Positions 34,905 to 62,099 of a stretch of DNA of 64,000 bases are shown here, one piece after another. A program made the translations under genes and the position numbers. The notes below the pieces were generated by a model. That model saw only the letters and a list, made by a program, of their open reading frames with translations, ran no database searches and had not been told where the DNA came from. The stretch comes from an uncultured virus (IMG/VR IMGVR_UViG_3300025646_006603) (taxonomy: Duplodnaviria > Heunggongvirae > Uroviricota > Caudoviricetes). The number at the start of each line of letters is the position of its first letter. Within the stretch, counting starts at the first letter, position 1. The DNA is taken from IMG/VR virus record IMGVR_UViG_3300025646_006603; one strand, written 5' to 3'.

Positions 34905-36671
34905 ATGATGCAAGAAAACAACAATACAATTTCTAACATACCTGAAATTAAAGCCATGCGTGTTCTTGAAGAATACGAAGGTTTTAATAACTATATTCTT
35001 GCAATAAAAAAGAAGAAAGAAAATTCCAAAAATTTCAAGATTACAAGAGCACAAGCTGACTACATAAACAACTATAAAGATGTTGTTCCAAAACTAGCAA
35101 GAAGATGGGTTCCATTGGATTCTTATTTTTCAAAAAGAATGATGGAAGACAAACTATTAACAAAAGAACCTGAAAAGATTTATATTGAAAAACTTTTAGT
35201 TGAAAAAGATAAAGCATTTCATATTTGGGGTCGACTATTTGAATCCGAAGAATTTTATGATTTTTGGTTACCAAAAGCCGCAATTATAGGAAAGAAAGAA
35301 AATAAAGTTGAAATAGATTATTCAAAGTATTCTAATCGACCTCCGTTGGAACACCAAAAAGAAGCAATTGAAAAGTTGGTGGCTAATGACAAATACATCC
35401 TTGCAGATGACATGGGTTTGGGTAAAACAACATCAACCGTTATAGGTACATTAGAATCAAAATCCGAAAAAGTTTTAATTATTTGTCCCGCATCACTTAA
35501 GATTAACTGGATGAGGGAAATACAAAATTACACAGATAAAACAATTTCAATCATCGAAGGTAAAAATTGGGAAAGTGCCGACTATATGATTATCAACTAT
35601 GATATCCTTAAAAACTTTCACGATTCAAAACTACCTGACGAATCAAAAATTTTAAATGAAGGTTTTGATTTGGTTGTTGTCGATGAAGCTCACTACATTC
35701 AAAACGCACAAGCACAAAGAACAAAGATTGTTAATGATGTTTGTAAGAAAATTGGTCGGGTATGGTTACTAACAGGTACTCCGATGACATCAAGACCGAT
35801 GAACTACTACAACCTTCTTAATCTTGTTGATAGTCCCGTCGCTTACAATTGGATGGCATATGTAAAAAGATATTGTAATGGATATCAGTTCACTGTTGGT
35901 AAACGAAAAGTATGGAACGTTCAAGGGGCTGACAATCTTGAAGAACTAAGAGACCGTACCAAAACTCATGTACTTAGAAGATTAAAAGAAGACATATTAG
36001 ATTTACCAGACAAAATTATTACACCCGTTTATTTGAGATTAAAATCTCGTGATTATGAACAACTAATGGGTGAATATTATGACTGGTATGAACAATCAGA
36101 TGAATCATCATCATTGACCGTTCAATTTTCAAAGTTAATGAAAGTTAGACAAGTAATTGCCGAAAATAAGGTAAAAGAAACTTGTGAACTTGCAGAAAAC
36201 ATAATTGAACAAGGTAAAAAAGTTATCATATTCACAAACTTTACAAACACACTGAATATGATAAAAGAACATTTTGGGAAAGCAGCAGTAACTTTAGATG
36301 GTAGTATGTCTAAACCTGCCCGTCAACATTCGGTTGACCAATTCCAAGAGAACGATAAAATAAAAGTGTTCGTTGGTAACTTAAAAGCTGCGGGTGTTGG
36401 TATCACCTTAACAGCTGCAGAAGCTGCCATTATGAACGACTTATCATTTGTACCTTCTGACCACGCACAAGCAGAAGACCGAGCCTATAGATATGGACAA
36501 AAATCAAACGTATCTATATTCTACCCAATATTTGAAAACACAATCGAAGGTGTTATCTATGATATCCTATCAAAGAAGAAGAATATTTTTGAAACTGTAA
36601 TGGGTGACAACGAAGGTAAAGGTGATACTCTAGAAGAAATATTAAATGAGATTTCACAAAGAAGAAAATAA
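34905..36671 (+). CDS. SNF2-family helicase (SMARCAL1/HARP-like)
   Basis: LADDMGLGKT, ICPASLKINW, VVDEAH, LTGTP, AAGVGITLTAA, QAEDRAYRYGQ. Confidence 0.92.
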   Translation: MMQENNNTISNIPEIKAMRVLEEYEGFNNYILAIKKKKENSKNFKITRAQADYINNYKDVVPKLARRWVPLDSYFSKRMMEDKLLTKEPEKIYIEKLLVEKDKAFHIWGRLFESEEFYDFWLPKAAIIGKKENKVEIDYSKYSNRPPLEHQKEAIEKLVANDKYILADDMGLGKTTSTVIGTLESKSEKVLIICPASLKINWMREIQNYTDKTISIIEGKNWESADYMIINYDILKNFHDSKLPDESKILNEGFDLVVVDEAHYIQNAQAQRTKIVNDVCKKIGRVWLLTGTPMTSRPMNYYNLLNLVDSPVAYNWMAYVKRYCNGYQFTVGKRKVWNVQGADNLEELRDRTKTHVLRRLKEDILDLPDKIITPVYLRLKSRDYEQLMGEYYDWYEQSDESSSLTVQFSKLMKVRQVIAENKVKETCELAENIIEQGKKVIIFTNFTNTLNMIKEHFGKAAVTLDGSMSKPARQHSVDQFQENDKIKVFVGNLKAAGVGITLTAAEAAIMNDLSFVPSDHAQAEDRAYRYGQKSNVSIFYPIFENTIEGVIYDILSKKKNIFETVMGDNEGKGDTLEEILNEISQRRK

Positions 36672-36711
36672 CCTTTTTACATCTAGAGATTATTTATTAA
36701 TAAAACTTTAG

Positions 36712-38274
36712 ATGGGTTTCAAAAAACTAAAACAAAGAGTTAAAGAACTCGAAGAACAAATCAACAAAAATGTTGCAGATAACAATACGATTAAAGAATC
36801 TGTAACGGAAAAATCACGCAAAGAAATTTTATTAGAAATGAAAAAAATTGGTATTGAAAAATTACCATACTCCTATTCTGCCTTAGATACATTCATCGAC
36901 AAAGAGACAATGTATGTACATTACAATAAACATTACAAGGGGTATGTAGACAAGTTAAATAAGGCAATTGAAAAAAGAAAAGGTCCTGATTTGGACTTAG
37001 AACAAATTGTAAAAGGTATAAGTAGATTTAATAATAGTATTAAAGATAATGCTGGCGGTGCATTTAACCACGCACTGTTTTGGAAGATGTTAACACCAAA
37101 AAATACTCGTGTATATGGTCCTATACTTAGAAAAATTAAAGAAGAATTTGGTACATACGAGGATTTTAAAAAAGAATTTGAAAAGAAAGCTAAATCTAAA
37201 TTTGGCTCTGGATGGGTTTGGTTAGTGGTAACTAACAACGATAAGTTAAAGATTATGACCACATCCAATCAAGACAACCCGTTGATGAACACAGTAAAGT
37301 TTGGCGGTTACCCTATACTTGGTTTAGACCTTTGGGAGCACGCATATTACTTGAAATACAGGAATCGAAGAGACGAATACGTTGAGAATTTTTGGAAAGT
37401 AATTAACTGGCCTTTTGTTAATAAACTTTATTTAGGTAGAACAAAAGACAAAGTTAAAGAAGGAAAGTTTATTCAACAAGTAATTAATGAGGGTGTTTCT
37501 GCAGGATGTAATGCAAAACAAGTTAACACATATAGAATGATATTTAACCGAAATCCACAGGTTAAAAAGAAATTTATGTTTGCAATTATGGATATATTAA
37601 AAGAAGTATTTGCCGATTATTGGTTTGAAAAGAATGAATATGCATCAGGTCAAATGTCAGGAATATACGACTATGAACAACCAGGTCGTTCTGTAATTAA
37701 TAAGTTAAACACTAATTACACTGCATTTTGTACATTAACTAATGATATAAACCAATACTTAAAAAAAGTTGGTATAAATCCAATCAATTATATTGGTCAA
37801 AACGAACAACAACAGTTATCCGAAACAGATAGATTGATTAGGTACATGACGGAATTACGATATAGGATTTTTAATCCTGAATCAAGTACATTCCAAACAA
37901 TTATGTCAGGATTAGATAGGTCCAATAAATTTGGAGATAAGAGAGAAATAAATGCAGTAGTAAACCTAAAAGATATTTTTGGAACTCAAGAAGTTTTTAA
38001 AGTAGGAGAATTAGGTGGTGTTGATGATATGTTAGGTGGTATTGACGCATATGTTGAAACTCCTGAAGGTAAAAAAACAATGCAGATTAAACCATTTAAT
38101 GATATTAAAGAAGAAGATGGCAAAGTAACTGTATTTGGTAGTGGTAATGTTAAACCATACAAAACAGATTATTTAGTATTTCATAATGATAAAGATGGTA
38201 CAGTTGTGTTCAAAAACAACGCCGAAATTGTTGATGGAAGGTACGTGTTCAGTGTTGATGATAGAATCAATTAA
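36712..38274 (+). CDS. sod: Fe/Mn superoxide dismutase (Mn-type signature) fused to an uncharacterised C-terminal domain
   Basis: LPYSYSAL, HYNKHY, GGAFNHALFW, FGSGWVWL, NQDNP, DLWEHAYY; about 270 extra C-terminal residues. Confidence 0.88.
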   Translation: MGFKKLKQRVKELEEQINKNVADNNTIKESVTEKSRKEILLEMKKIGIEKLPYSYSALDTFIDKETMYVHYNKHYKGYVDKLNKAIEKRKGPDLDLEQIVKGISRFNNSIKDNAGGAFNHALFWKMLTPKNTRVYGPILRKIKEEFGTYEDFKKEFEKKAKSKFGSGWVWLVVTNNDKLKIMTTSNQDNPLMNTVKFGGYPILGLDLWEHAYYLKYRNRRDEYVENFWKVINWPFVNKLYLGRTKDKVKEGKFIQQVINEGVSAGCNAKQVNTYRMIFNRNPQVKKKFMFAIMDILKEVFADYWFEKNEYASGQMSGIYDYEQPGRSVINKLNTNYTAFCTLTNDINQYLKKVGINPINYIGQNEQQQLSETDRLIRYMTELRYRIFNPESSTFQTIMSGLDRSNKFGDKREINAVVNLKDIFGTQEVFKVGELGGVDDMLGGIDAYVETPEGKKTMQIKPFNDIKEEDGKVTVFGSGNVKPYKTDYLVFHNDKDGTVVFKNNAEIVDGRYVFSVDDRIN

Positions 38275-38312: not shown

Positions 38313-39434
38313 ATGGCTGTAACTAATATCATCAAAGAACCGGATAGAAGTAAATTATACACTCGTATTAGACACCTTTTGGGTGCACCAATTAGAAGTG
38401 TAGAAATTGAAGACGAAATGATGGATTCCCTTTTGGAATTATCAATTCAGGACTACGCACAATATGTTAATGATTGGTTGATTGAAAATCAGTGGACTTC
38501 CTTGTACGGAATGAATCTTGATGAACAATCACTAACAAGAGCATTTACTACTCGTTCTTTAGATTGGGAAACTCAATATACTTACGCATATTCTAAAATT
38601 GTTGGACTACAAGCTGGTGGTGATTGGGTTCTGAAAAAAGATTATGTTGATTTAGTACCAGGACAACAAATTTATGAAATACCTGCAGGTCGTGAAGTTA
38701 ACGAACTTTTATGGTTTTCAAGGTCTGAATTAGATGCCGCATTCTTTGACCCATTTATGGGTGGATTTGGTGGATTTGGTGGAATTGGATTAGGTGGCGC
38801 AGCCGGTTTCTCTCAAATGGGAACTATGGGTAACTATTTTATTACACCAGCATTTGATATCTTGTTAAGAATGCAAGACATCAATATTAAAAGAAGAATT
38901 ATTTCAGGTGAATTAACATATAGAATTACCGCATTACCTGATGGTAAAAAAGCACTTCATTTAATGAACGTACCTGGTGGTAAATTTGATTTTGGAAATA
39001 TTCAATATAACGAGTATAGATGTTGGTATTGGTATTACGATACAGATGATAGAGAAGCTTGTTTAGCGGCAAACCCTGATGTTGTAAAATTACCTTCTGA
39101 TATTCCAATCGATGAAATGTCGTGGACAGAACTAAACTCACCCGCACAAACATGGGTACGTAGATGGTTTACTGCTTACGTTAAAGAAACTTTAGGTAGG
39201 GTTAGAGGTAAATTTAGTGGTAATTTAAAAACGCCAGATTCAGAAGTCACTTTAGAATATGATTCATTGTTAACAGAAGCAAAAGATGAAAAATCTAAAT
39301 TAATGGAAGAATTAACTGCGAGATTAGAAAGATTACGTCCTGAAAAAATGATGGAAAGAGAGGCTAATGTTGCAGAACAATTAAATAAATCGCTCCAATA
39401 CAGAGCGTTCCCAAGACAATTTTATGTAATTTAA
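38313..39434 (+). CDS. Neck protein, T4 gp13-like
   Basis: LGAPIRSVEIEDEM, WVRRWFTAYVKETLGRVRGKF, LLTEAKDEK. Confidence 0.78.
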   Translation: MAVTNIIKEPDRSKLYTRIRHLLGAPIRSVEIEDEMMDSLLELSIQDYAQYVNDWLIENQWTSLYGMNLDEQSLTRAFTTRSLDWETQYTYAYSKIVGLQAGGDWVLKKDYVDLVPGQQIYEIPAGREVNELLWFSRSELDAAFFDPFMGGFGGFGGIGLGGAAGFSQMGTMGNYFITPAFDILLRMQDINIKRRIISGELTYRITALPDGKKALHLMNVPGGKFDFGNIQYNEYRCWYWYYDTDDREACLAANPDVVKLPSDIPIDEMSWTELNSPAQTWVRRWFTAYVKETLGRVRGKFSGNLKTPDSEVTLEYDSLLTEAKDEKSKLMEELTARLERLRPEKMMEREANVAEQLNKSLQYRAFPRQFYVI

Positions 39435-48457: not shown

Positions 48458-49669
48458 ATGTCAAAAATTAATGTATTAGTATTACCCTCCGATAGAACAG
48501 GTGTGGGTAAATTTCGTTCGGTAGACCCTCACATCTTTTTACAAAATCTTTATCCTGATGATTTTCATGTTGATATTGACTATGAACCAAAATTAAATGA
48601 TTTTAATTATTGGAAACAATATCAAATAGTTCATTTTCACAGAACTATCGGGGATTACGATACCGCACCAATCTTAATAGAAACTCTTAATAATTTAGGT
48701 ATTATCACAATCATTGATTTGGATGACTATTGGTTACCAACCAAAGAACATCCTGCATATACTTTGGTTATGGAGACAGGATTACACAAAAAAATATGTG
48801 ATAATCTTAAGGCCGCAAAATATGTTACAACAACAACACCTATTTATGCTGACGAGATTAAAAAACTTAATAAAAATGTTTTTGTTCTTCCTAACGCAAT
48901 TAACCCTGACGAACCACAATTTAAAGCAAAAACCGAACCATCAGATAGGTTGCGTTTTGGTTGGTTAGGTGGTTCTTCTCACTTACACGACATTGATTTG
49001 TTGAGAGGTAATTTTGGTAAATTGTCATCAGTTAAAGATAAGTTCTCATTAGTACTTTGTGGTTTTGATACAAGAGGAACAGTAACTGAGATAAATGCAG
49101 AAACAAAAGAACAAAGACAAAGACCAATTAAACCACACGAAACTGTATGGGCTCGTTACGAAGAAATCTTTACCGAAAACTATAAATTAGTTTCACCACA
49201 ACAGAAAGATTTTCTCATTAAGTTTTCAAATGAAGAATACACTCAAGAGGATAGTCCATTCTATACTCGTGTATGGACACAACCTGTTACATCTTACGCT
49301 AAAAACTACAGATTGTTTGATGTTTCATTAGCACCAATCAAAAACCACATCTTTAATAGAATGAAATCTCAACTTAAAGTTATTGAGGCAGGATTCTATA
49401 AAAAACCAATTATTGCGTCTGAAATTGGACCTTACACTATTGACTTGAAACATTCACTTCAAAATGGTAACTTTGTTGATGGTAACGCACTTCTTGTTAG
49501 AGAAGGAAGAAACCATTCAGATTGGTCAAAGTATATGAAGAAACTAATTGATAACCCATCTTGGGCTGAAGATTTAGGTGAAAGATTATATGAGACGGTA
49601 AAAGACAAATACAATTTGAATAACGTAACAAAAACAAGAGCAGAACTATATAAATCACTACTAAAATGA
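48458..49669 (+). CDS. Glycosyltransferase, GT-B fold (GT4-like)
   Basis: G.GKFR...P, DLDDYW, VLPNAI, GWLGGSSH..D, DVSLAPI....FNRMKSQLKVIEAG. Confidence 0.82.
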   Translation: MSKINVLVLPSDRTGVGKFRSVDPHIFLQNLYPDDFHVDIDYEPKLNDFNYWKQYQIVHFHRTIGDYDTAPILIETLNNLGIITIIDLDDYWLPTKEHPAYTLVMETGLHKKICDNLKAAKYVTTTTPIYADEIKKLNKNVFVLPNAINPDEPQFKAKTEPSDRLRFGWLGGSSHLHDIDLLRGNFGKLSSVKDKFSLVLCGFDTRGTVTEINAETKEQRQRPIKPHETVWARYEEIFTENYKLVSPQQKDFLIKFSNEEYTQEDSPFYTRVWTQPVTSYAKNYRLFDVSLAPIKNHIFNRMKSQLKVIEAGFYKKPIIASEIGPYTIDLKHSLQNGNFVDGNALLVREGRNHSDWSKYMKKLIDNPSWAEDLGERLYETVKDKYNLNNVTKTRAELYKSLLK

Positions 49670-50367
49670 TAAACACACCATTAACCAAAATTTTATTTCT
49701 CGACATTGAAACTGTCGGTCTTACTCCTGACTTTGAAAGTTTGGAAAAATTCTATCCTGATTTGGCATACCAATTTGAAAATTATTTAGATTGGTTTGAG
49801 AAAAGATTTCCTGAACATAAGGACGCAGGTCCTTCGGAAATGTTTTATAACAAAGCGGCATTGGTTTCAGAATTTTTAAAGATTGTTTGTGTAAGTGTTG
49901 GGTTCGTGGACCCAAAAGGAGATATTAAAATGCAAAGTTTTTATGGAGATGATGAAAAGAAAATTCTTGAAGATGTTCAACACTTATTGAAAAGAATTGG
50001 AAAATTAGATTTTCATTTGTGTGGTCACAACGTAAAAGGTTTTGATATTCCTGTTTTAGCAAAACGAATGGTAATTAATGGATTGTTACCTCCACCAATT
50101 CTACCAAATCACGATACAAAGCCGTGGGAAATTAAGGCACTAGACACAAAAGAGTTATGGCAGTTTGGTAGTTTCTCTTCTATTGCATCATTAGAATTGA
50201 TGTGTATTGGGATGGGTGTTGAATCTTCTAAAACTATGGAAGTTACAGGTAACAAAGTACACGAAGCTTATTGGAAAGACCAAAAATTAGAACAGATTAA
50301 AGATTACTGTGAAAAAGATGTTGAGGTGTTAATAAACGTTGTTAGAAAATTTTACGATTTAAAATGA
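49666..50367 (+). CDS. Stand-alone 3'-5' exonuclease related to the PolB exonuclease domain
   Basis: FLDIETV, GHNVKGFDIP, YCEKDV (DEDDy). Confidence 0.85.
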   Translation: MINTPLTKILFLDIETVGLTPDFESLEKFYPDLAYQFENYLDWFEKRFPEHKDAGPSEMFYNKAALVSEFLKIVCVSVGFVDPKGDIKMQSFYGDDEKKILEDVQHLLKRIGKLDFHLCGHNVKGFDIPVLAKRMVINGLLPPPILPNHDTKPWEIKALDTKELWQFGSFSSIASLELMCIGMGVESSKTMEVTGNKVHEAYWKDQKLEQIKDYCEKDVEVLINVVRKFYDLK

Positions 50368-50963
50368 TAAAAGGTATTAATGATATTAGAAACAACTTGA
50401 AGTCCTTGAAGGACTTACAAGGAAATTTGTCAAACATTGACATGTCAAATCCTGAAAAGATGTTAGAATCTATGGGTATTGATATGGAACAATTAAACAA
50501 AGATTTTATGGATAGTTACAAAACTAAAGTAGTATTAGAATATACATACAAATCTGAGAACAAGAATCCCGAATATGCATATCCTACGGATTCAGGGTTT
50601 GATTTAAGAGCCAATGAAAAAGTTCATTTTACAGGGTTTGAAAGAAAATTAGTTTCAACAGGACTTTTTGTTAATATCCCTGAAGGTTATGAAATACAAG
50701 TAAGACCTAAAAGTGGATTAGCAATCAACAAAGGTTTGTCTGTTCTTAATACACCAGGAACTGTAGACCAAGGATATACAGGAGAAATTAAAGTTATTGT
50801 TATTAACATGAGTAACATGCCACAAACCATTGAGGTTGGAGATAAAATTGCCCAAGCGGTTTTATGTCCTGTAGTGTGTGGAAAATATGTAACCCTAAAG
50901 GAAGTATCTAAAGTAGAAGATAAAGACAGAGGGGATAATGGATTTGGTTCAACGGGAAATTAA
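50364..50963 (+). CDS. dut: Trimeric dUTPase with N-terminal extension
   Basis: SGFDL, QVRPKSGLA, NTPGTVDQGYTGEI, GDKIAQ, RGDNGFGSTG. Confidence 0.95.
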   Translation: MIKGINDIRNNLKSLKDLQGNLSNIDMSNPEKMLESMGIDMEQLNKDFMDSYKTKVVLEYTYKSENKNPEYAYPTDSGFDLRANEKVHFTGFERKLVSTGLFVNIPEGYEIQVRPKSGLAINKGLSVLNTPGTVDQGYTGEIKVIVINMSNMPQTIEVGDKIAQAVLCPVVCGKYVTLKEVSKVEDKDRGDNGFGSTGN

Positions 50964-50964
50964 T

Positions 50965-51348
50965 ATGAATGTATCACCAATTTTACCGGAAGGTATGAAG
51001 AATTATCTAATAGATATTGATGGAACTATAACGGATGATATCCCAAATGAAGAATCATGGAGAATGTTAGATTGCCTTCCATATGAAGGTTGTGTTGACA
51101 TTATTAACAAATGGTACAGAGAAGGTCATATTATAACCTTTTTTACTTCAAGAACAGAAGAACATCGAGCAGTAACTGACACATGGTTACAAAAAAATGG
51201 TTTTCAATTTCATAATCTTTTAATGGGTAAACCTCGAGGTGGAAATTACCATTGGATTGATAATCACATTGTTAGAGCCACTCGATATAATGGTGTTTGG
51301 AGTGAATTAAAAACCAAAACCGTAGATATACAAGTATTTGAAGAATGA
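50965..51348 (+). CDS. Small HAD-superfamily phosphatase (start revised to ATG 50965)
   Basis: LIDIDGTI, FFTSR, WL, MGKP, WIDN. Confidence 0.78.
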   Translation: MNVSPILPEGMKNYLIDIDGTITDDIPNEESWRMLDCLPYEGCVDIINKWYREGHIITFFTSRTEEHRAVTDTWLQKNGFQFHNLLMGKPRGGNYHWIDNHIVRATRYNGVWSELKTKTVDIQVFEE

Positions 51349-52727
51349 TAACAATAGCGTATAGTACAAAATCAACTAAACCTGAATTCTCTAATTATTT
51401 AAGAGAAACCTGTGGTGTTAAGAATGCTCAAATCATTGAGAAGGTTAACCCAGGTATCAAATCATTGTCAAAAGTATATAATGAGATTTTAGATGAATCA
51501 GAAAATGATATTGTAGTCATATGTCACGATGATATCTATTTTGAAAAAAATTATTGGGCTAAAAGAGTTTTAGAACATTTTTCAAAAAAAGATAACTACG
51601 GTATATTAGGTGTTGCAGGAACGACTTACTACCCTTCATCAGGGAGATGGTGGGATATTCAGGGAGAGATGGTTGGACAAGTATACCATCAACATGAAGG
51701 TAAGAAGTGGTTATCACAATATAATGAACCTTTTGGGGGTAAGACCATAAAAACTGTTATAATTGACGGAGTTTTTATGGGTATAAACCGAAAAACTATT
51801 AAAAAAAGATTTAACGAAGAAGTAGATGGGTTCCATTTTTATGATACAACATTCTGTATGGAAAACTTTTTGGAAGGTGTAAACATTGGGACAATATCAA
51901 ATGTCCCGTTAACTCACCTTTCAATCGGCATGACTAATGACCAATGGGAACAGAATCGTTTAAAATTTGTAGAAAGATTTAAAGACCACCTACCAATTAA
52001 GTTACCGTCAATTTATCCCGTAAACAAAATCAAAGATAAACAACCTTTGGTTTCTGTTATAATGCCGGTTTATAATTACGGAGTTCAGTTTGAAAAATCA
52101 ATCGAATCTGTTTTTAATTCAACGTATAAAAATGTTGAATTAATTATTGTAAATGATGGGTCTACTGATGAATATGTTTTAGAAAAACTTAATTCAATAA
52201 ACCACCCAAATATTACAGTTTTACATAAAGAAAACGGTGGTCCATCTGCCGCCAGAAATTACGGTATAAAAAACTCAAAAGGACAATACATTTTACCTTT
52301 AGATTCAGATGATAGAATCTATCCTGATTACATACAAGCATGTGTAAACATCCTTAATAGAAACCCAAAGATAAGTCCAGTGTATTGTGATACACATCAC
52401 GTAGGTGAAATGCAAGGAATGGAACCAAGACCTGAATGGTCTATGGATAGATTGATTCAAGGACCATTTATTGTGAATTGTTCTATGTTCCATAGAAGTG
52501 CATTTGATAAAACTGAAGGTTACGATGAAACATTAAAAGGATGGGAAGATTATGACCTTTGGATTAGAATGGGCCAAAAAGGATATGAAGGAAAACGAAT
52601 TCCAAAACCATTGTTTATGTATTTTCATCATGAAAAAGATGGGACCGTTTCAACGCAAGCAAATAAAAACATGCAAGAGTTGTATGATAAAATAATGAAT
52701 AAAAATTTTAATCATGAAACTATTTGA
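51345..52727 (+). CDS. Two-domain glycosyltransferase (GT-A-like plus GT2)
   Basis: N-domain YNE...ICHDDI...GVAG...IDG...FHFYD; C-domain VSVIMPVYN, VNDGSTD, ARNYG, LDSDD, EDYDLW. Confidence 0.88.
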   Translation: MITIAYSTKSTKPEFSNYLRETCGVKNAQIIEKVNPGIKSLSKVYNEILDESENDIVVICHDDIYFEKNYWAKRVLEHFSKKDNYGILGVAGTTYYPSSGRWWDIQGEMVGQVYHQHEGKKWLSQYNEPFGGKTIKTVIIDGVFMGINRKTIKKRFNEEVDGFHFYDTTFCMENFLEGVNIGTISNVPLTHLSIGMTNDQWEQNRLKFVERFKDHLPIKLPSIYPVNKIKDKQPLVSVIMPVYNYGVQFEKSIESVFNSTYKNVELIIVNDGSTDEYVLEKLNSINHPNITVLHKENGGPSAARNYGIKNSKGQYILPLDSDDRIYPDYIQACVNILNRNPKISPVYCDTHHVGEMQGMEPRPEWSMDRLIQGPFIVNCSMFHRSAFDKTEGYDETLKGWEDYDLWIRMGQKGYEGKRIPKPLFMYFHHEKDGTVSTQANKNMQELYDKIMNKNFNHETI

Positions 52728-53337
52728 AAGATACGATAAAGTTTTTTGTATTAATTTATCTAAAAGACCTGACCGATTAGATAACTTTAAATCTGAAGTT
52801 GAAAAACACAACTTGGGTGAGTTTGTGAGATTTGAGGCTGTTGATGGGGACTTATTAAAGATTAACTCTAAATTATTAAAAGGAGAAATTGGTATAAATC
52901 AATCTATCATTAATTTAATGGAGTTGTCGATTAGAGAAAACTACAATCATATACTAATAATTGAGGATGATTGTGTTTTTAACGAGAATATTAAACAACT
53001 AGATGATTATCTACCCCAAGTCCCTAATGATTGGGATATGTTATATTTTGGGGGTAACCATAACACACATATGGGTACAATACCACCATTTCCCGTTAAT
53101 AAAAATATTGTAAGATTACATACAACATATGCCGCACATTGTATTGCAATTAAAAAACATATGTTTCCAATAATATTAAAAGAGATTAAAAAATTTGAAT
53201 CTCCTTTGGATGTTTCATATCAAAAGTTACAAAAAAATCACAAGATTTATGGACTAAATCCTGGTGTTGCTACACAAATGAAAGATTATAGTGACATACA
53301 GAAAAAAGAAGTGAATTATGATTGGTTAATAAAATAA
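52714..53337 (+). CDS. Glycosyltransferase family 25
   Basis: CINL..RPDR, RFEAVDG, GEIG...S, LIIEDD, WDMLYFG. Confidence 0.85.
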   Translation: MKLFERYDKVFCINLSKRPDRLDNFKSEVEKHNLGEFVRFEAVDGDLLKINSKLLKGEIGINQSIINLMELSIRENYNHILIIEDDCVFNENIKQLDDYLPQVPNDWDMLYFGGNHNTHMGTIPPFPVNKNIVRLHTTYAAHCIAIKKHMFPIILKEIKKFESPLDVSYQKLQKNHKIYGLNPGVATQMKDYSDIQKKEVNYDWLIK

Positions 53338-53344
53338 AAACAAA

Positions 53345-54160
53345 ATGGAAATATTTTCTACAGCATATTTGATGGGTGGGTTGGGGAATCAAATGTTTCA
53401 AATTGCACATGCCAAGGCACAAGGTTTAAAAAAGGGAGTTAAAACAATCTTTACAAAGAATTGTTTTACACCGATGCAAGCATCAAAACCAACCAAATAT
53501 TTAGATAATATATACAAAAAAATTGAGTTCGTTGACTCTTTAACTAATACAACAAGAATATCTGAATCAGGATGGAATAATCCTAATTTAAATTTTGATT
53601 GGGATACACCAATCGAATTTTATGGATATTTCCAAAGTTCAAAAAACTTTTTAGAATATCAAAATGAAATACAAGAGTTATTTCAACCAAGTGAAGATTT
53701 TATAACAAAAATATACAATGAGTATCCTGATTTACAAAATGAATGTATTTCATTACACATTAGACGAGGAGATTATTTAAAAATTAAACATGTTTTACCA
53801 ACAGTAGACATATCTTATATTAATGAAGCACTTCTAAGATGTGATAAAAATCAAAAAGTATTTTTATTTAGTGACGATAAAGAATTTTTAAAAAGTAATT
53901 TTAATGATTCAAGATTTATTATTGTTGATGATAAAGAAGATTATGAAGAATTATGGATGATGAGCCTTTGTAATACCAATATAATATCTAACTCTACATT
54001 TTCATGGTGGGGGGCTTATCTTAATAAAAACAAAAATAAAAAAGTTTTTATGCCATCACAATGGTTTGGACCCAGCGGTCCAAATCCTCATGATAGTATT
54101 TTTGAAGATGATTGGGAAAAAATAAATGTAAAATATATTGATGGAAAATTATGTTATTAG
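53345..54160 (+). CDS. Alpha-1,2-fucosyltransferase, GT11
   Basis: GGLGNQMFQ, GYFQS, HIRRGDY, FSDD, NSTFSWWGAYL. Confidence 0.9.
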   Translation: MEIFSTAYLMGGLGNQMFQIAHAKAQGLKKGVKTIFTKNCFTPMQASKPTKYLDNIYKKIEFVDSLTNTTRISESGWNNPNLNFDWDTPIEFYGYFQSSKNFLEYQNEIQELFQPSEDFITKIYNEYPDLQNECISLHIRRGDYLKIKHVLPTVDISYINEALLRCDKNQKVFLFSDDKEFLKSNFNDSRFIIVDDKEDYEELWMMSLCNTNIISNSTFSWWGAYLNKNKNKKVFMPSQWFGPSGPNPHDSIFEDDWEKINVKYIDGKLCY

Positions 54161-54762
54161 ATTTAATAAGTTTGGTAAAAAAATATGATATGAAAATTAA
54201 TGGTGTTATCCATATTGGTGCACATCATGGTCAAGAAGATAGTACGTATAAAGTTTTGGGTATAAAAAATAAAATGTTTTTTGAACCACTAAAAAGAAAT
54301 TTTGAAATATTAAAACAAAATGTTTCTGAAGATTCAATTTTAGTTAATAAAGCATTAGGTAACGAAACAAAAAACGTTAAAATGTTCGTTGAGACGGCTA
54401 ACAGAAGTCAATCTTCATCTATATTAAAACCTAAGTTACACTTGACCCAATACCCTAGAATACAATTTAATGAAGAAGAAGAAGTCGAAATGACTCGTCT
54501 TGATAATATTCAAGTTGATACTACCAAATATAATTTTATAAACATAGATGTCCAAGGATATGAACTTGAAGTTTTTAAAGGTTCAGAAAAAACTTTAGAG
54601 AATATTGACTATATAATGTCTGAAATTAATAGAGATGAGGTTTATGAAAATTGTGCAAAAATTAATGAGTTAACAGAATTTCTATCTTCATATGGATTTA
54701 AGTTAGTAGAACAAAATTGGGCTGGAAGTACATGGGGTGACGGATTATTTATTAAACAATAA
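54151..54762 (+). CDS. FkbM-family SAM-dependent methyltransferase
   Basis: HIGAHHG, FEP, SSSIL, RLD, IDVQGYELEVFKG. Confidence 0.88.
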   Translation: MLLDLISLVKKYDMKINGVIHIGAHHGQEDSTYKVLGIKNKMFFEPLKRNFEILKQNVSEDSILVNKALGNETKNVKMFVETANRSQSSSILKPKLHLTQYPRIQFNEEEEVEMTRLDNIQVDTTKYNFINIDVQGYELEVFKGSEKTLENIDYIMSEINRDEVYENCAKINELTEFLSSYGFKLVEQNWAGSTWGDGLFIKQ

Positions 54763-55559
54763 TGAAAAATTATAATTTAAATAATAGTCCATTTTCACAT
54801 GCCCACTCATCGACTTGGTGGAAGAAATCCACTTATATAAATTGGCAATACAACACCAAAGAAAATGATACTACCTTTTATATTGATTCAGGATTACAAA
54901 AAGGTATTTCAGAAAAAAACGATGGGAAAATAAAAATATTGTGGGGATTAGAATCACCACATTATAATGGTAATTTTATTCAAAATATTAAAAACAACTT
55001 AAATGAAGTAATAGATACCTATGATTTAATTCTTACATATTCTGATGAATTAATTAATCTAAATGAAAAATTTAAATGGATACCTGGTAATGGTTTTTGG
55101 ATTGAGGAACCAAAAATATATAATAAGACAAAGTTAATTTCTATAGTTACATCAAACAAAAAATTTACACCCCAACAAATGTTTAGAACTGAATTTGTTG
55201 AAAAATATAAAGATATTGTTGATGTGTATGGAAATGGATATAATAGAATACAAAAAAAAGAAGAAGGTCTAAAGGATTATATGTTTTCGGTAGCCATCGA
55301 AAATGAAATACATGATACGTATTTTACTGAAAAAATATTAGATTGTTTTGCCACGGGCACTATACCTATTTATAGTGGCACTAAAAAAATTGTTGAACAT
55401 TTTAATTCTGATGGTATATTATTTTTAGATGAAATAAATTTAAATGATTTAAATGAAGAATTATATTTTTCAAAACTCGATGCGATAAAAGATAATTTTG
55501 AAAGGGTTTTAAAATATGATGTTCTTGAAGATTGGTTTTATAAAAAATATTTAATATGA
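54762..55559 (+). CDS. GT10-family fucosyltransferase-like protein
   Basis: YMFSVAIEN....YFTEKILDCF..GTIPIY.G nucleotide-sugar motif. Confidence 0.82.
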   Translation: MKNYNLNNSPFSHAHSSTWWKKSTYINWQYNTKENDTTFYIDSGLQKGISEKNDGKIKILWGLESPHYNGNFIQNIKNNLNEVIDTYDLILTYSDELINLNEKFKWIPGNGFWIEEPKIYNKTKLISIVTSNKKFTPQQMFRTEFVEKYKDIVDVYGNGYNRIQKKEEGLKDYMFSVAIENEIHDTYFTEKILDCFATGTIPIYSGTKKIVEHFNSDGILFLDEINLNDLNEELYFSKLDAIKDNFERVLKYDVLEDWFYKKYLI

Positions 55560-56263
55560 TTAGTATAGTCACAGGAACTTTAAATCGTAAGGAATTTCTT
55601 CCAGGTTTAATAGAAAATACAGTTGGTAGGTCCGAAAAACTAGAGTTAGTTTTAGTAGATGGGGGTAGTACTGATGGTACTATAGAATACATAAAAGAAT
55701 TGTCTCACCCACAAATAACATTAATAGAATATGGGGAAAGAAGTTCTTACCCTCATTTTATGAATTTAGGTATACGTAATTCAAAATATGATTATATAAT
55801 ACAATGGAATGATGATGTTCTTTTAGTTAATGATTGGGAAGAAGTTTTTAACGAGATTGATGACCATGATTTTTATATTTTTAATTGGAAATATGGAAAT
55901 GTATCCGATGTAACTAACAACGAATGGATAAAAGGAGATTATAGAGATAATGGTTGGTGTATATGGGATGATTATAATAAAAATAAAGAAGTTGTTATGA
56001 ACTACGGAATATACCACAAACGTATTTTTAAAGAGATTGGTATGTATAGTAACGAATTTAAATATTATTATGCGGATGGTGATATGTCGAGAAGAGCTTT
56101 CTTATTTGGGTATAAAATGAAAAGTTGTCCCAATATTAAGGTATGTTCTATTAATACAGACAAAAGAGCAATTAGAACACCAGAATCTCATTCGGTATAT
56201 GAGAGATACCATCAAGAGTATAAAAATAAATTTTTAAACGAAAATATAGAATTCTTAAAATGA
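55556..56263 (+). CDS. Glycosyltransferase family 2
   Basis: ISIV..TLNR, VDGGSTDGT, MNLGI, WNDD, YYADGD. Confidence 0.85.
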   Translation: MISIVTGTLNRKEFLPGLIENTVGRSEKLELVLVDGGSTDGTIEYIKELSHPQITLIEYGERSSYPHFMNLGIRNSKYDYIIQWNDDVLLVNDWEEVFNEIDDHDFYIFNWKYGNVSDVTNNEWIKGDYRDNGWCIWDDYNKNKEVVMNYGIYHKRIFKEIGMYSNEFKYYYADGDMSRRAFLFGYKMKSCPNIKVCSINTDKRAIRTPESHSVYERYHQEYKNKFLNENIEFLK

Positions 56264-56970
56264 AAAAAGTTATAGCATTTTCACTGTATCAAGCACCCGA
56301 TAGTTGGGAAAAGAAAATGGATACAAACTACAAAAAATATCTCAATGGTTTAAAGATAAACATGGAAGATATAAAAAATTATTACTCTGATTGGTTTGTC
56401 TATCTTTATCATGATGAAAACTTAGATAAATCTTTATTAGATGAATTTAAAAGTTATGATAAGTTCACACCTTTTGAGGTGACGGATAAATCTATCTCTG
56501 CAATGCAATGGAGATTCTTACCTAATGATGACGAAAGTGTAGATTTATTTATTGTTAGAGATATGGATTCTCGAATCTCACAAAGAGAGGTTACATCAGT
56601 GAATGAATGGATTGATAGTGGTAAGGTATTACATATCATGAGAGACCACCCTCACCACCATTATAAAATATTAGGAGGTATGTGGGGAATGAGATGCCAA
56701 AGAGATTTTAACATTACAGAAGAATGTAGAAATTACAATACCTCAAAAGGTTATGTTATAGATACAGGATGGTACGACAAATGGTGGGATATGAATTTTT
56801 TAAGAGACGTAGTTTACCCAAAATATATTGATAGTAGTTTCGTAAATGCATCTTATCATAAGATGGAGAATTGGGCAACTGATTTTACCGTAGAGAGAAA
56901 AGATAGAAAATTTATTGGCGAAATTTATAATGAAAATAACGAAAGAGGATATCATTACAATTTATTATGA
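56260..56970 (+). CDS. Conserved glycan-cluster protein, putative GT-A-fold transferase
   Basis: IAFSLY, M.WRFLP, IVRDMDSRI..RE...V.EW, HIMRDHPHH...ILGGMWG. Confidence 0.6.
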   Translation: MKKVIAFSLYQAPDSWEKKMDTNYKKYLNGLKINMEDIKNYYSDWFVYLYHDENLDKSLLDEFKSYDKFTPFEVTDKSISAMQWRFLPNDDESVDLFIVRDMDSRISQREVTSVNEWIDSGKVLHIMRDHPHHHYKILGGMWGMRCQRDFNITEECRNYNTSKGYVIDTGWYDKWWDMNFLRDVVYPKYIDSSFVNASYHKMENWATDFTVERKDRKFIGEIYNENNERGYHYNLL

Positions 56971-57623
56971 CATTAGGATTAGCAATACCATGTACTAAAA
57001 GTTACATTAACTATTTGGAAAATTTATTAGAAAATATCAGTAAACAAACTGTAATTCCTGATGAAATTTCAATTTCTATTTCAGAAATGGATAATTATTA
57101 TCCCACAAATGATTATGGTTTAAATCTTATAATCACTACGACTATAGATAAAAAAAATGGAGCTGAAAACAGAAATATTGCATCTTCAAAATTAAACACA
57201 GATATTGTATCATTTATGGATTGCGATGATTTAATGCATCCACAAAGAACTGAATTTATAAAAGAATCTTTTGTGAATGATATTGATGGTGTTGTACATG
57301 ATTTTGAAATATCACATAATTGTAGTTGGAAAACAATAGAATTTCCTTTAGATGAATTTTTAAATGTAACATATGAAAATATGGACTTTAAAAAAGACGT
57401 AATAGATTCAATAGTTTCTGGTAGTTTATACCCTAACAACGTTAGTGTAAAATATGTTTACCATAACGCACATGTATCAGTAAAAAAAGAACTACTAAAA
57501 ACTTTTACATACGACACAACACACACTTTTCCTGACTCTATCTTTAATAGGTCACTAATAGAAAACGGACACAAATTAAGTTATATATCAAATAAACTAT
57601 CTTACTACGATTTAAAATGGTAA
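56967..57623 (+). CDS. Glycosyltransferase family 2-like
   Basis: AIPC, QT..PDE, NRN, SFMDCDDLMHPQR.E. Confidence 0.72.
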   Translation: MTLGLAIPCTKSYINYLENLLENISKQTVIPDEISISISEMDNYYPTNDYGLNLIITTTIDKKNGAENRNIASSKLNTDIVSFMDCDDLMHPQRTEFIKESFVNDIDGVVHDFEISHNCSWKTIEFPLDEFLNVTYENMDFKKDVIDSIVSGSLYPNNVSVKYVYHNAHVSVKKELLKTFTYDTTHTFPDSIFNRSLIENGHKLSYISNKLSYYDLKW

Positions 57624-58435
57624 TAGAAAAAGTAATCTTCACAATAGATGATAATCCACATTACAAAGGATTTTGGAAATCAATAAGCAGACATTACAAA
57701 ACAAGATTAGGTTTTGAGTGTAAATTATTTATTATTGGTAATAATGTTGACATAAATGAGTATGACTCCACATACGGAGAAATAGAAGTGGTACCTTTAG
57801 TTGAAGGGGTTCCATCAATAATACAAGCACTTATTGGTAAATTTTATTACACACTAACCGAACCAAATACCACATGGAAAATTGGTGATTTAGATTTATA
57901 CCCACTACAGAAAAATCATTTTGTAGAAAAAATAAAAGATATTGATGATGACAAATATGTACATCTTCACTCTCACGCATATGGCGAAAATTGGCGTGAT
58001 ACAGTTTATGGTCTAGCCGGTTATTACCATGTAGCTAAAGGTAAAGTATTTGAACGTGAATTAAAATTTACAGATAAAACCTTCAGTGATGTGGTACATG
58101 AAATATACAACGGAAATAGATGGGGTATAAAATTTTATGAAAATAATGCATCTGAAGTTAGTAAAAAAGCTTCTCCTCATTGGGGATGGTTTTGTTGTGA
58201 GGAAATGTATACTGGTGAGATGTTAAGAACCTCAACCAATTTAATTGAAATAAAAGCAGAAGAAACTGAAGGTATTTACAAGGGAATTTATAGGAGAATT
58301 GATAGGTCTAATTTAAACTATATTGAGGATGATTTGATTAATGGAAAATATATTGATTTTCATTCTCCAAGACCCTATGAAGACCATTCTGAATTTATTG
58401 AAAACCTCATAAAACAACCTAACGATTTTAATTAA
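57617..58435 (+). CDS. Putative glycosyltransferase/hypothetical protein
   Basis: DDNP.Y..FW, GDLDLYPL (DxD), RIDR, YIDFHSPRPY; lies within glycan island. Confidence 0.55.
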   Translation: MVIEKVIFTIDDNPHYKGFWKSISRHYKTRLGFECKLFIIGNNVDINEYDSTYGEIEVVPLVEGVPSIIQALIGKFYYTLTEPNTTWKIGDLDLYPLQKNHFVEKIKDIDDDKYVHLHSHAYGENWRDTVYGLAGYYHVAKGKVFERELKFTDKTFSDVVHEIYNGNRWGIKFYENNASEVSKKASPHWGWFCCEEMYTGEMLRTSTNLIEIKAEETEGIYKGIYRRIDRSNLNYIEDDLINGKYIDFHSPRPYEDHSEFIENLIKQPNDFN

Positions 58436-58436
58436 A

Positions 58437-59126
58437 ATGATTTATTTATTGGCATATCCAAGAAGTGGTAGTTCTTTTTTTAGATATCTTTTAGGTTTTT
58501 TAACCGAATCTAAACCCATGCAACCTGACGGTCATTGTGAGTTGGATAACCTTTTAAAGGATTATTATAAAAAAGAACCATACATTAAAAAATTTCATAA
58601 ACCCGTTGAATCTTTCACACATATGATACAACAAAATGGTAATGATAAATTAGTTTTATTATTACGAGACCCAGTTGAGAATATATTATCATTCGCATTA
58701 TCAAATGAAAATTTAAATAAAAAGAATTTTTCAGATTCTTTTATCAATAATTTTGTTAATAAAGAATTTAATAATGGAAGTTTTGTATTTCACAGATACA
58801 CAAAATCTTTTTTAGAAAATATTAATTTTTATAAAAACTGGCAAGGTGAAAAAACTGTAGTTAATTATGAAAACTTAATGACTGATATTGAGAATGAACT
58901 ATTAAAACATTGTGATTTTTTTGGTTACTCAAAAGAAAGAGTTGATTTACTAATGTCTGATATTGAATATCATCGCAATCTAATGTTAAAAGAAAAAACA
59001 AAAAACACCGACCCTTTTTCAGTTAATACTAAAGGTAAAGATTTAAATAAATTTAAAAATACACTTAACGAAGATAATTTACTATATTTAGAAAAAATGG
59101 TTTCTAATAATGTCGGTGAATTATGA
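58437..59126 (+). CDS. Sulfotransferase (PAPS-dependent)
   Basis: 5'-PSB YPRSGSSFFRYLL, K.H, 3'-PB LLRDPVENILS, YENL. Confidence 0.75.
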   Translation: MIYLLAYPRSGSSFFRYLLGFLTESKPMQPDGHCELDNLLKDYYKKEPYIKKFHKPVESFTHMIQQNGNDKLVLLLRDPVENILSFALSNENLNKKNFSDSFINNFVNKEFNNGSFVFHRYTKSFLENINFYKNWQGEKTVVNYENLMTDIENELLKHCDFFGYSKERVDLLMSDIEYHRNLMLKEKTKNTDPFSVNTKGKDLNKFKNTLNEDNLLYLEKMVSNNVGEL

Positions 59127-60210
59127 TTTTCTTATAGTTGGTTCAGGATTTTTTGGTTCAATATGTGCTTATGAATTAAAAAAATTAGGATACTCAGTAT
59201 GCGTAATTGACTCAAGAAACCATATTGGTGGAAATTGTTATACTCAAAAAGAATCAAATATTAATGTTCACAAATACGGACCACATATATTTCATACTTC
59301 AGATGAAGAAGTGTGGAAATGGATTAATCAGTTTGTCGAATTTAATAACTTTACACTTAGACCTGTTGCAAATTACAAAGGGGAAATTTATTCATTACCT
59401 TTTAACATGTGGACATTCTCAAAAATGTGGGGAATAACACAACCTGAAGAAGCAAAAAAAATTATTGAAACACAATCATTAGAAATAACAGGTACACCAA
59501 AAAATTTAGAAGAACAAGCAATTAGATTAGTCGGTACTGACATATATCAAAAACTTATAAAGGGTTATACCGAAAAACAATGGAAGAAATCTTGTAAGGA
59601 ATTACCACCTGAAATAATTAAAAGATTACCTGTTAGATTTACATACGATAACAACTATTTTAATGACAAGTATCAGGGTATACCGATTGGTGGATATACT
59701 CAAATTTTTGAGAAACTTTTAAAAGATGTTGATGTATTGTTAGATACAGATTTTTTCGAAGATGAAATACCAAACTATAATAAATTAATATATACCGGAC
59801 CAATAGACCGTTTTTATGATTATAAATTTGGTGAGCTAGAGTATAAAACTACAGATTTTATACATCATACTCTTGATGGTATTTCTAATTTTCAGGGAAC
59901 TGCTATGATGAATTTTACATCTAAAGATGTTGAACATACTCGCATAATTGAACACAAACATTTTGAAGATACGGAATCATATAACACCGTTATTACTTAC
60001 GAGTACCCAAAGGATTATAAAGCCGGTAAAACCGAACCATTGTATCCTGTTAATGATAAAGAAAATAATGAAAAGTACCTAAAGTATAAATCTTTATCCG
60101 AAAATGAAGAAAATATTTACTTCGGTGGTAGATTAGGTGAATATAAGTATTATGATATGCATCAAGTTATAAAATCAGCATTAGATTTTATAAGAAAAAT
60201 AAATAACTAA
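59110..60210 (+). CDS. glf: UDP-galactopyranose mutase
   Basis: IVGSGFFG, HIGGNCY, HKYGPHIFHT, YTEKQW, RLPVR, YQGIP, GRLGEYKYYDMHQ. Confidence 0.95.
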   Translation: MSVNYDFLIVGSGFFGSICAYELKKLGYSVCVIDSRNHIGGNCYTQKESNINVHKYGPHIFHTSDEEVWKWINQFVEFNNFTLRPVANYKGEIYSLPFNMWTFSKMWGITQPEEAKKIIETQSLEITGTPKNLEEQAIRLVGTDIYQKLIKGYTEKQWKKSCKELPPEIIKRLPVRFTYDNNYFNDKYQGIPIGGYTQIFEKLLKDVDVLLDTDFFEDEIPNYNKLIYTGPIDRFYDYKFGELEYKTTDFIHHTLDGISNFQGTAMMNFTSKDVEHTRIIEHKHFEDTESYNTVITYEYPKDYKAGKTEPLYPVNDKENNEKYLKYKSLSENEENIYFGGRLGEYKYYDMHQVIKSALDFIRKINN

Positions 60211-60235
60211 AATAAATAACTAAAAAAAATAAAAA

Positions 60236-61132
60236 ATGAGATTAATAACAGGAAATGGATTGGTTGGTTCAGCGTTAGATGGGGACGTAAAAATCTCGTC
60301 ACACCACTTTGATTTAAGGGACACGGAAAGTGTTAAATCAATGTTTGAATTTTATAAACCTACAGAGGTTATACATACAGCCGCGAAAGTTGGAGGTTTG
60401 GGTTCAAATATGAAATATAAAGGAGAATATTTTTACGATAACATTATGATGAATACTAATGTTATTGAGCAAGCCAGACAAAATGGTGTTCAAAAATTAG
60501 TTGCCTTTTTATCTACTTGTGTTTTCCCTGATGATGTTGAATACCCCCTAACGGAAAAGAAAATTCATTTAGGTGAACCACACTTTTCAAACAACGCATA
60601 CGCATACGCTAAAAGAATGACGGATGTTCAAATTAGAGCTTATAGAGAACAATATGGTCTACAATACAAATCGGTAATCCCGACAAACATTTATGGACCT
60701 AATGACAATTTCTCATTAACACATGGTCACGTGATGCCGATGCTAATACACAAAATGTATTTAGCTCAGAAGAACAACACTCCTTTTGAGGTTTGGGGTT
60801 CGGGTAAACCATTAAGAGAGTTTATCTTCTCTAAAGATGTTGCACAGTTAACTGAATGGGTTATGAAGAATTATGATGAAGATGAACCTATTATTCTATC
60901 TACATCAGAAGAAATATCAATTAGAGATTTGGTTGATTTGCTTGTTCAGGAATTTAATTTTAAGGGTGAGGTTATTTTTGATTCATCTAAACCTGATGGA
61001 CAATTTAGAAAACCATCAGATAATAGTAAGATTAAAAATTATCTTCCTGAATTTAAATTTACACCAATAGAAGAAGGAATAAAAGAAACAGTAAAATGGT
61101 TTATTGAAAATTATGAAATTACAAGAAAATAA
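60236..61132 (+). CDS. fcl: GDP-L-fucose synthase
   Basis: TGNGLVGSA, AAKVGG, STCVFP, YAYAKR, PTNIYGPNDNF, WGSGKPLREF, KPDGQ.RK. Confidence 0.92.
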   Translation: MRLITGNGLVGSALDGDVKISSHHFDLRDTESVKSMFEFYKPTEVIHTAAKVGGLGSNMKYKGEYFYDNIMMNTNVIEQARQNGVQKLVAFLSTCVFPDDVEYPLTEKKIHLGEPHFSNNAYAYAKRMTDVQIRAYREQYGLQYKSVIPTNIYGPNDNFSLTHGHVMPMLIHKMYLAQKNNTPFEVWGSGKPLREFIFSKDVAQLTEWVMKNYDEDEPIILSTSEEISIRDLVDLLVQEFNFKGEVIFDSSKPDGQFRKPSDNSKIKNYLPEFKFTPIEEGIKETVKWFIENYEITRK

Positions 61133-62099
61133 AGTCGCATTAATTACAGGAATTAACGGACAAGACGGTTCGTATTTATCTGAATTTTTATTAGAAAAAG
61201 GTTATACCGTTTATGGTATATTAAAGAGAAATTCTGTTGCAGAAAACCAAACAGCAAGATTAGATAATGTATACGATAAAATTAAATTATTTTATGCGGA
61301 TATGACTGATTTATCGTCATTAATATCTGTTATACAAAAAATAATGCCAGATGAGATTTATAACTTAGCTGCACAATCACACGTAAGAATTTCATTTGAC
61401 CAACCAATATATACTGCAAATGTTACGGGTCTCGGTACTTTAAATTTACTTGAAGCTGTGAGGTTAATTAAACCAAACGCTAAGGTCTATCAAGCATCAT
61501 CTTCTGAGATGTTTGGTAACAGTATAGATGAAGATGGTTTCCAAAGAGAAACAACACCTTTAAATCCAGTATCACCTTATGGTTGTGCTAAGGTTTTTTC
61601 ATATAACATTTGTAGAAATTATCGTAACTCTTATGGAATGTTTATTTCAAATGGTATTCTATTTAATCACGAATCACCACGAAGAGGAACAAACTTTGTA
61701 ACAAATAAAGTTGCAAAAGAGGCAGTAAAAATTAAGTTAGGGTTATCTAATGAACTTAAGTTAGGTAACTTAGATGCGACTCGTGATTGGGGACACGCTA
61801 AAGATTATGTTGAGGCAATGTGGATGATTTTACAACAAGAAAATTCTGATGATTATGTATGTTCAACAGGTATTTCACACTCAGTTAGAGATTTATGTGA
61901 ATATACATTTTCAAAACTTGGACTTAATTATGAGGACTATGTAAAGATGGATGAAAAGTTTTTAAGACCTGAAGAGTTACATGATTTAAAAGGTGACTCA
62001 ACAAAATTAAGGTCACACACAGGATGGAACCCTGTTTACACTTTCGAATCTATGATGGATGAAATGATTGATTATTGGTTAAATTATTATACATTATAG
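61113..62099 (+). CDS. gmd: GDP-mannose 4,6-dehydratase
   Basis: ALITGINGQDGSYL, YNLAAQSHV, QASSSEMFG, SPYGCAK, FNHESPRRG, LGNLDATRDWG. Confidence 0.95.
   Translation: MKLQENKVALITGINGQDGSYLSEFLLEKGYTVYGILKRNSVAENQTARLDNVYDKIKLFYADMTDLSSLISVIQKIMPDEIYNLAAQSHVRISFDQPIYTANVTGLGTLNLLEAVRLIKPNAKVYQASSSEMFGNSIDEDGFQRETTPLNPVSPYGCAKVFSYNICRNYRNSYGMFISNGILFNHESPRRGTNFVTNKVAKEAVKIKLGLSNELKLGNLDATRDWGHAKDYVEAMWMILQQENSDDYVCSTGISHSVRDLCEYTFSKLGLNYEDYVKMDEKFLRPEELHDLKGDSTKLRSHTGWNPVYTFESMMDEMIDYWLNYYTL

Follow-up and report, generated by a model that had tools for sequence, protein, structure and literature searches.

What would a phage do with a superoxide dismutase (SOD) that is joined in one reading frame to a nuclease-like domain? 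The window, i.e. the whole stretch of 64,000 nucleotides analysed here (uncultured virus record IMGVR_UViG_3300025646_006603), carries such a gene at 36712-38274 on the plus strand, a single frame of 520 amino acids (aa) with zero internal stops. The original prediction described a complete Fe/Mn SOD followed by a PD-(D/E)XK-like domain and proposed either a two-function protein or a cleavable polyprotein, coupling defence against reactive oxygen species to nucleic-acid processing. Using aa 250-520 as query, 342 matches were found among 1395 candidates. The SOD motif was present in 96 of 121 proteins (the query and the best 120 of the 342 matches), and both parts were fused at 39/39 close viral loci having the C-terminal part, with lengths of 515-521 aa. 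Two fused loci from separate records showed a 100% identical C-terminal part. The SOD-nuclease fusion is a real, widely conserved single protein. An assembly artefact or a lost stop codon, the error considered with the prediction, was ruled out by the 39 fused loci, including the identical separate records. No description of an SOD-nuclease fusion was found in the literature searched, whose coverage excluded most subscription papers. The reading frame and the homologue loci define a layout of leader, SOD, linker and nuclease. Three of its elements go beyond the prediction: a leader of 42 aa, joints with I/L-x-E motifs and, separating the SOD from the nuclease core, a helical domain of 144 aa (aa 261-404).

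The SOD module (aa 43-243; 36838-37440, plus strand) was found as complete as predicted. Pfam Sod_Fe_N matched aa 48-127 (3e-21; 76.1 bits at a cut-off of 27) and Sod_Fe_C aa 137-238 (7e-40; 135.6 bits at a cut-off of 20.9), and all four metal ligands were present as H70, H120, D206 and H210. Together with H74 they were invariant in 97/97 full-length fusions, while the outer-sphere residues Y78 and Q187 were kept in 96 of 97 each; this set comprised 97 of 99 proteins of 470-560 aa, picked without an active-site filter. The expected GG and NQD signature was located at G115-G116 and N186-Q187-D188. The NCBIfam Mn SOD model scored above the Fe model (194 versus 158 bits), both under the cut-off (equivalog 363 bits), and the best solved relatives were Mn SODs (44-49% identity, rmsd about 2 A). 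These comparisons suggest a Mn-type enzyme, with Mn as the predicted metal. The dN/dS of the SOD was 0.01-0.03 in 4 of 5 close pairs, the fifth being incomputable and dS partly saturated. With bacterial Mn-type SODs (S. aureus SodA, 5n56; Sphingobacterium MnSOD, 6gsc/5a9g) the phage module shares the four ligands, H74, Y78, G115-G116 and Q187; unlike them, it sits inside a putative polyprotein, with a leader before and a nuclease after it, and remains below the equivalog cut-offs.

The C-terminal part was less easily classified. Zero family matches were obtained for aa 244-520 in Pfam, PHROG, NCBIfam and PADLOC, and a PDB sequence search with the C-terminal part reached E 0.24 at best, with none under E 0.2. 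The predicted structure of aa 262-520 (pLDDT 87) consists of one helical and one alpha-beta half. For the alpha-beta half, which holds the nuclease core (aa 405-520; 37924-38271, plus strand), the structural matches were archaeal Hjc (Z 7.6 over 100 residues, rmsd 3.5), I-Ssp6803I (7.2), HhaI (6.8), Hje (6.6), NhoI (6.5) and DpnI (5.5). Foldseek returned the same nuclease set with I-Ssp6803I on top (E 5e-3, none under 1e-3), and Atlas feature clusters labelled RE_TaqI and RE_MjaI matched at 0.93-0.94. The top 6 VIA rows and the 10 top Foldseek rows were all PD-(D/E)XK-fold nucleases, the matched entries being, as we take it, members of this superfamily. The best scores are singly modest, and the fold was assigned because several such matches agree. 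The sequence pattern noted in the prediction was recovered at G408 and E412 (37933-37947), D439, D445 and Q458-I-K460 (to 38091). Of these, E412, D439, D445, Q458 and K460 were invariant in 123/123 rows, distant forms included, and in 97/97 full-length fusions. Predicted structure, Foldseek, feature matches and invariant residues agree with the proposed domain and support a PD-(D/E)XK nuclease fold for which catalysis is predicted. The core fold over aa 404-520 and the E...D...QxK pattern are common to Hjc (2wcw), I-Ssp6803I (2ost), NhoI, HhaI, DpnI and RE_TaqI/RE_MjaI-like phage clusters; compared to these nucleases, the phage protein shows 7-19% identity and has an extra, unmatched helical domain. 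This domain (37492-37923, plus strand) carries a conserved GRSxxNKLNTNY motif. It had no family match, aa 262-405 had no Atlas match, and structure comparison gave only generic rows (Z<=4.2). Probably it serves in DNA recognition or dimerisation.

The nuclease family is broad, with 324 representatives at E<=0.001, from which P0242 (TPR) and P0134, P0168 and P0181 (partial matches fused to different Pfam domains) were set aside. The relative G002 contains two distant stand-alone paralogues (L050:3906-4982 and L050:16600-17607), both with TATTTAT upstream, and a distant homologue was observed in a 735 kb phage (L040; LR756501), where nearby genes start with short, E-ending, leader-like residues. 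Databases tag the proteins studied here as superoxide dismutase, and a conserved nuclease family for which no profile exists has been overlooked.

Two of the structural matches suggest functions of their own. T4 endonuclease VII clears branched DNA during packaging, and the nuclease might have a similar task in the prohead, resolving junctions or debranching DNA that is being packaged, with the SOD as passenger. Hjc is the best structural match, but it is tied with I-Ssp6803I, HhaI and Hje within about 1 Z unit and has no counterpart of the 144-aa extra domain, and the feature matches are to restriction-enzyme families. I-Ssp6803I, top in Foldseek and second by Z, would suit a free-standing homing endonuclease which captured the SOD as a selectable passenger; its presence varies between relatives, and the two G002 paralogues would fit as well.

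The locus is a fixed slot. Its left border is the gene of an SNF2-type helicase (34908-36671, plus strand) and its right border that of a neck/head-tail adaptor (phrog_211; 38313-39434, plus strand) with its own TATTTAT. Gene order at fused loci was sheath, a 346-aa gene, a 171-aa gene, SNF2 helicase, fusion, neck and polB, the last two where the contig extends. The content of the slot varies. A search with a nuclease-only protein yielded 80 loci, of which 54 have only the nuclease in this position and 26 have the fusion; three nuclease-alone genomes, at least 91% complete, contained no SOD anywhere. A total of 65 distinct SOD-centred genes comprised 59 with SOD and nuclease (one frameshifted), 4 with SOD only and 2 with SOD between other flanks. 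The SOD-only proteins carry the same leader as the fusion, and an I/L-x-E leader was kept by 117 of 120 short SOD relatives, some of which are fusion fragments. As each domain also occurs alone in the same slot, a shared delivery route rather than a shared reaction is indicated. Of the two options first proposed we favour the cleavable polyprotein; a functional coupling of ROS defence to nucleic-acid processing stays hypothetical.

Further slot variants were observed. The frameshift at L207:3959-5510 breaks the fusion inside the nuclease and reflects a pseudogene or an assembly error. At L189:749-2846 and L190:3575-5674 the slot encodes a 699-aa protein in which the SOD follows an extra N-terminal domain and precedes a C-terminal part that bears no relation to the nuclease; no Pfam match was obtained outside the SOD, and both loci retain GATC. 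At L073 and L098-L103 the helicase frame has 962-968 aa, where about 600 is usual, and may contain an intein, and extra genes of 219-386 aa are inserted beside the slot at L074, L075, L095, L122, L137-L141 and L212.

A quick tree with midpoint rooting, which covered 90 of 123 rows, placed 15 nuclease-only rows in one clade (support 100) nested within the fusions, and 14 distant rows were without SOD; some nuclease-only proteins lacking context may be partial gene calls. A single SOD gain with later losses would be the simplest, if undemonstrated, history. Divergence of the nuclease followed that of the neck gene closely at 40 fused loci (Spearman 0.92), that of the SOD less so (0.55). This difference fits a resident nuclease gene with a more mobile SOD module. 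The co-inheritance with the neck gene, the fixed position beside helicase and neck, and the late motif described below would all suit a packaging resolvase; the 4 loci without a nuclease in the slot and the forms under a housekeeping promoter do not, and overall we consider this function clearly unlikely. The homing endonuclease appears highly improbable: the site is identical at all orthologous loci, divergence follows the neck gene, and the active site is invariant, with a nuclease dN/dS of 0.035-0.14; neither lateral spread nor decay was apparent.

By PHROG assignments (sheath, neck adaptor, polB) the window is a segment of a T4-like jumbo phage, and complete relatives measure 308-309 kb. 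Close relatives encode Gp23 and bS21; in G002 the bS21 gene lies between portal and protease. The source phage fits the T4-like bS21 phage group, for which Bacteroidetes hosts have been predicted (Chen et al. 2022; PMC9723584). In that study, family fam090 occurs in 17 of 22 bS21 genomes, mostly annotated as superoxide dismutase, and the gene order polB-x-neck-SOD-SNF2 is the same as here, fam090 being matched by gene order and not by sequence; the SOD is unmentioned in the main text, and the supplement rows consulted name no nuclease (PMC9723584). A cultured member was absent among 50,697 phage records, and 2 of 190 candidate stretches were confirmed in cellular genomes. One of the two, a contig with this gene order (L061), lies inside a Polynucleobacter metagenome-assembled genome, at odds with a Bacteroidota host; it is probably a mis-binned phage contig.

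In T4, the protease gp21 cleaves after L/I-X-E, and N-terminal propeptides direct cargo into the head, including EcoRI and staphylococcal nuclease (PMC9026906). A gp21-type protease (PF03420) was detected in 3 of 5 close-relative records, the remaining two being about 20% complete. Its gene lies beyond the window and is known from the relatives alone, which counts against a transfer of the T4 scheme. The Gp23 capsid protein showed, in 6/6 relatives, LINE followed by A about 60 residues in, at the expected end of the propeptide; we take this to be the equivalent of the T4 Gp23 cleavage site.

The fusion itself offers candidate sites of this kind. Its leader (aa 1-42; 36712-36837, plus strand), a K/E-rich helix with L-L-E42 at its end, is a putative propeptide or capsid-targeting segment, and the linker (aa 244-260; 37441-37491, plus strand) contains two putative protease sites, E250 and E260. 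In the full-length model pLDDT fell below 50 only at aa 22-43 and 246-260. Joint statistics were calculated for 39 non-redundant fusions under 75% identity, the rows being related and not independent trials. I/L-x-E was most frequent in the linker, at 9.0 per 100 aa (3.3x shuffled), and in the leader, at 8.3 (2.2x); the helical half had 1.59 (1.5x), the SOD 0.87 (1.0x) and the nuclease core 0.54 (0.63x). The control patterns I/L-x-D and I/L-E were not enriched at the joints of the same fusions. The E42 site was present in 31/39 of them, and the E250 and E260 sites in 35/39 each. Among the 97 full-length fusions E was found at position 42 in 78, at 250 in all 97 and at 260 in 95. An ungapped comparison gave a dN/dS of 0.4-1.1 for the leader, which thus changes rapidly but keeps its terminal E. 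Because the modules recombine freely at the I/L-x-E joints and the model shows no fixed inter-domain contact (pTM 0.50), cleavage is favoured over an intact two-function protein.

T4 internal proteins IPI-III and Alt offer the closest precedent, with an N-terminal segment ending in L/I-X-E ahead of a folded enzyme, a gp21 protease and Gp23 (here in related genomes) and late expression, which is putative here (PMC9026906). In contrast, the present leader has 42 aa instead of about 10, there are two enzymes per chain with internal sites, the cargo would be SOD plus nuclease, and the case is known from sequence alone.

Several observations speak against reading these joints as cleavage sites. The E250 site is V-K-E in this genome, with I/L-x-E in most relatives, while the E260 site is I-N-E. 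Conserved I/L-x-E also occurs within the helical domain (E298 in 27/39, E371 in 28/39) and would have to be shielded from the protease. Moreover, the non-virion SNF2 helicase was enriched in I/L-x-E (15 versus 8.3) and the scaffold was not (9 versus 9.3), and by itself the pattern is a weak predictor of cleavage or packaging. An uncleaved, cytoplasmic two-domain late protein would need no such sites: its SOD would shield replicating phage DNA, its nuclease would recycle host DNA to nucleotides, and I/L-x-E would be helix patterns. The poor predictions for helicase, scaffold and the phage PA5oct (see below) agree with this, as does purifying selection on the linker (dN/dS 0.01-0.03 in three close pairs). 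It leaves unexplained, however, why a rapidly evolving leader retains the terminal E in all three contexts, i.e. on fusions, on the SOD alone and on the nuclease alone.

A second line of evidence came from upstream regions. TATTTAT lies 21 nt 5' of the ATG (36691-36697, plus strand). Within 50 nt of the start it was found for 43/43 distinct fused genes, 16/17 genes with leader and nuclease, and 1/13 leaderless nuclease genes. TAnnTTTG showed the opposite distribution, with 0 fused, 0 leader-plus-nuclease and 11/13 leaderless genes. Backgrounds per 50 nt were 0.013 for TATTTAT and 0.041 for TAnnTTTG; L136-L141, missed by the pattern, were dropped from the counts, and L062 and L040 were left out. 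In Bacteroidetes, TANNTTTG serves as the -7 element of housekeeping promoters (PMC6847099). TAnnTTTG replaces TATTTAT upstream of the leaderless genes at L087, L088, L095, L096, L098, L111, L114, L115, L120, L121 and L128. In the window TATTTAT precedes 13 of 47 genes. These include sheath, neck, further genes whose position suggests a structural role, and a single replication gene; polB, the SNF2 helicase and most of the genes for replication and sugars lack it. This distribution suggests a putative late promoter motif and, for the fusion, late timing. A scan for sigma-70 promoters and terminators gave chance level, and Rfam had zero matches within the 64-kb window.

Joint loss of leader and TATTTAT would be expected if the leader serves only a late-made, packaged protein and the nuclease is needed early either way. 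An uncleaved cytoplasmic protein leaves this joint loss unexplained. Leaderless forms sit at two places on the tree, so the 13 leaderless genes represent two events only. Two of the 13 show neither motif, which weakens the reading as packaged cargo. The same holds for the G002 relative, where among 216 frames the link of TATTTAT to I/L-x-E leaders was weak (31/58 versus 56/158, p=0.019), with control patterns in the same association test at p=0.06-0.75.

Data from other phages bear on both readings. In one lake phage, a single sample of the six with data showed the fam090 transcript (1.5e-4), and in another phage the level was 0, too sparse for timing; the neck neighbour reached up to 6.7e-4, polB 0.7e-4 and the helicase 0 (PMC9723584, Table S8). 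Low-level transcription of the SOD-annotated gene of this locus would be in line with an uncleaved protein acting in the cytoplasm, an alternative which we hold to be rather unlikely overall. Pseudomonas phage PA5oct encodes an unannotated Fe/Mn-SOD family protein, EST35_0261 (MK797984; L246:3031-3579), with I-A-E before the fold, and three of its peptides were detected by ESI-MS in a virion preparation (PMC7318152, Table S5), which speaks for packaged cargo. Compared to the fusion, it has 27% identity and 182 aa, lacks a nuclease and is annotated as hypothetical/structural (PMC7318152). The virion MS list also includes cytoplasmic enzymes, e.g. ribonucleotide reductase and thymidylate synthase (PMC7318152). 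Across 73 PA5oct genes, I/L-x-E in the first 20 aa did not predict MS detection (7/27 versus 10/46, p=0.78), which counts against the fusion as packaged cargo.

Weighing these data, we favour, with a probability of roughly 0.55, a late-made capsid cargo whose SOD and nuclease are separated by cleavage and enter the cell at infection. Synthesis would start late from TATTTAT, and the leader would carry the polyprotein into the prohead core. There, a gp21-type prohead protease would cleave after E42 and after E250/E260, releasing a 24.7-kDa Mn-type SOD and a 29.8-kDa PD-(D/E)XK nuclease, both of which would be ejected along with the phage DNA. As infection begins, the nuclease would most likely attack DNA of the host (or of a competitor), and the SOD may clear superoxide, either in the cell just infected or within the particle. 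The fusion would then reflect one shared targeting leader and one late promoter, not one common substrate. Pieces that are cut in the prohead but stay in the particle or lack activity, acting only as internal filler or in protection of the packaged DNA, would rest on the same sequence evidence; both active sites are invariant, though, and leaderless forms under a host promoter imply intracellular action, which leaves little credence for such a filler. Both domains and the delivery route are already known; relative to the literature searched, their combination and the slot have not been described.

The tetranucleotide GATC was considered as a target of the nuclease. GATC was absent from the window (0 versus 378 expected) and from G002 (0 versus 1106), and was missing at 116 of 124 nuclease-bearing loci. 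It was kept along with an intact nuclease active site at 8 loci of 4 lineages, and the 4 SOD-only loci have neither a slot nuclease nor GATC. Residue 331 failed to separate the GATC groups, 10 loci without K at this position being GATC-free, and no D12 methylase was found in four partial GATC-positive records (11-17% complete). Host restriction accounts equally well for the absence of GATC, and cleavage of GATC by the nuclease is in our view very unlikely. AGACT was absent from the window only (0 versus 57). A long cluster at 48458-62099 of the window holds, judged from translations, glycosyltransferase-like, methyltransferase-like and sugar-nucleotide genes, and may modify virion, cell surface or DNA.

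For the biology of these phages the cargo reading has several consequences. Tentatively, and with more doubt than for the cargo itself, these jumbo phages may use a modular cargo slot to inject a preformed antioxidant enzyme together with a nuclease against the host genome, both synthesised as one chain and set free by the head protease; on at least two occasions, lineages would have given up delivery of the nuclease in the capsid and turned to transcribing it early from a host promoter. Capsid delivery and host-promoter transcription would then be two routes to the same early nuclease action. Phage redox genes are usually taken as auxiliary genes expressed in infection. A head-carried, protease-released SOD would act from the first minute, and with it one could test directly if infection is limited by a superoxide burst. 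The slot suggests how T4-like jumbo phages may combine several enzymes into one cargo. Leader and late motif are lost together, and this pairing would provide a sequence rule for the prediction of head cargo in a widespread group of uncultured lake and coastal phages.
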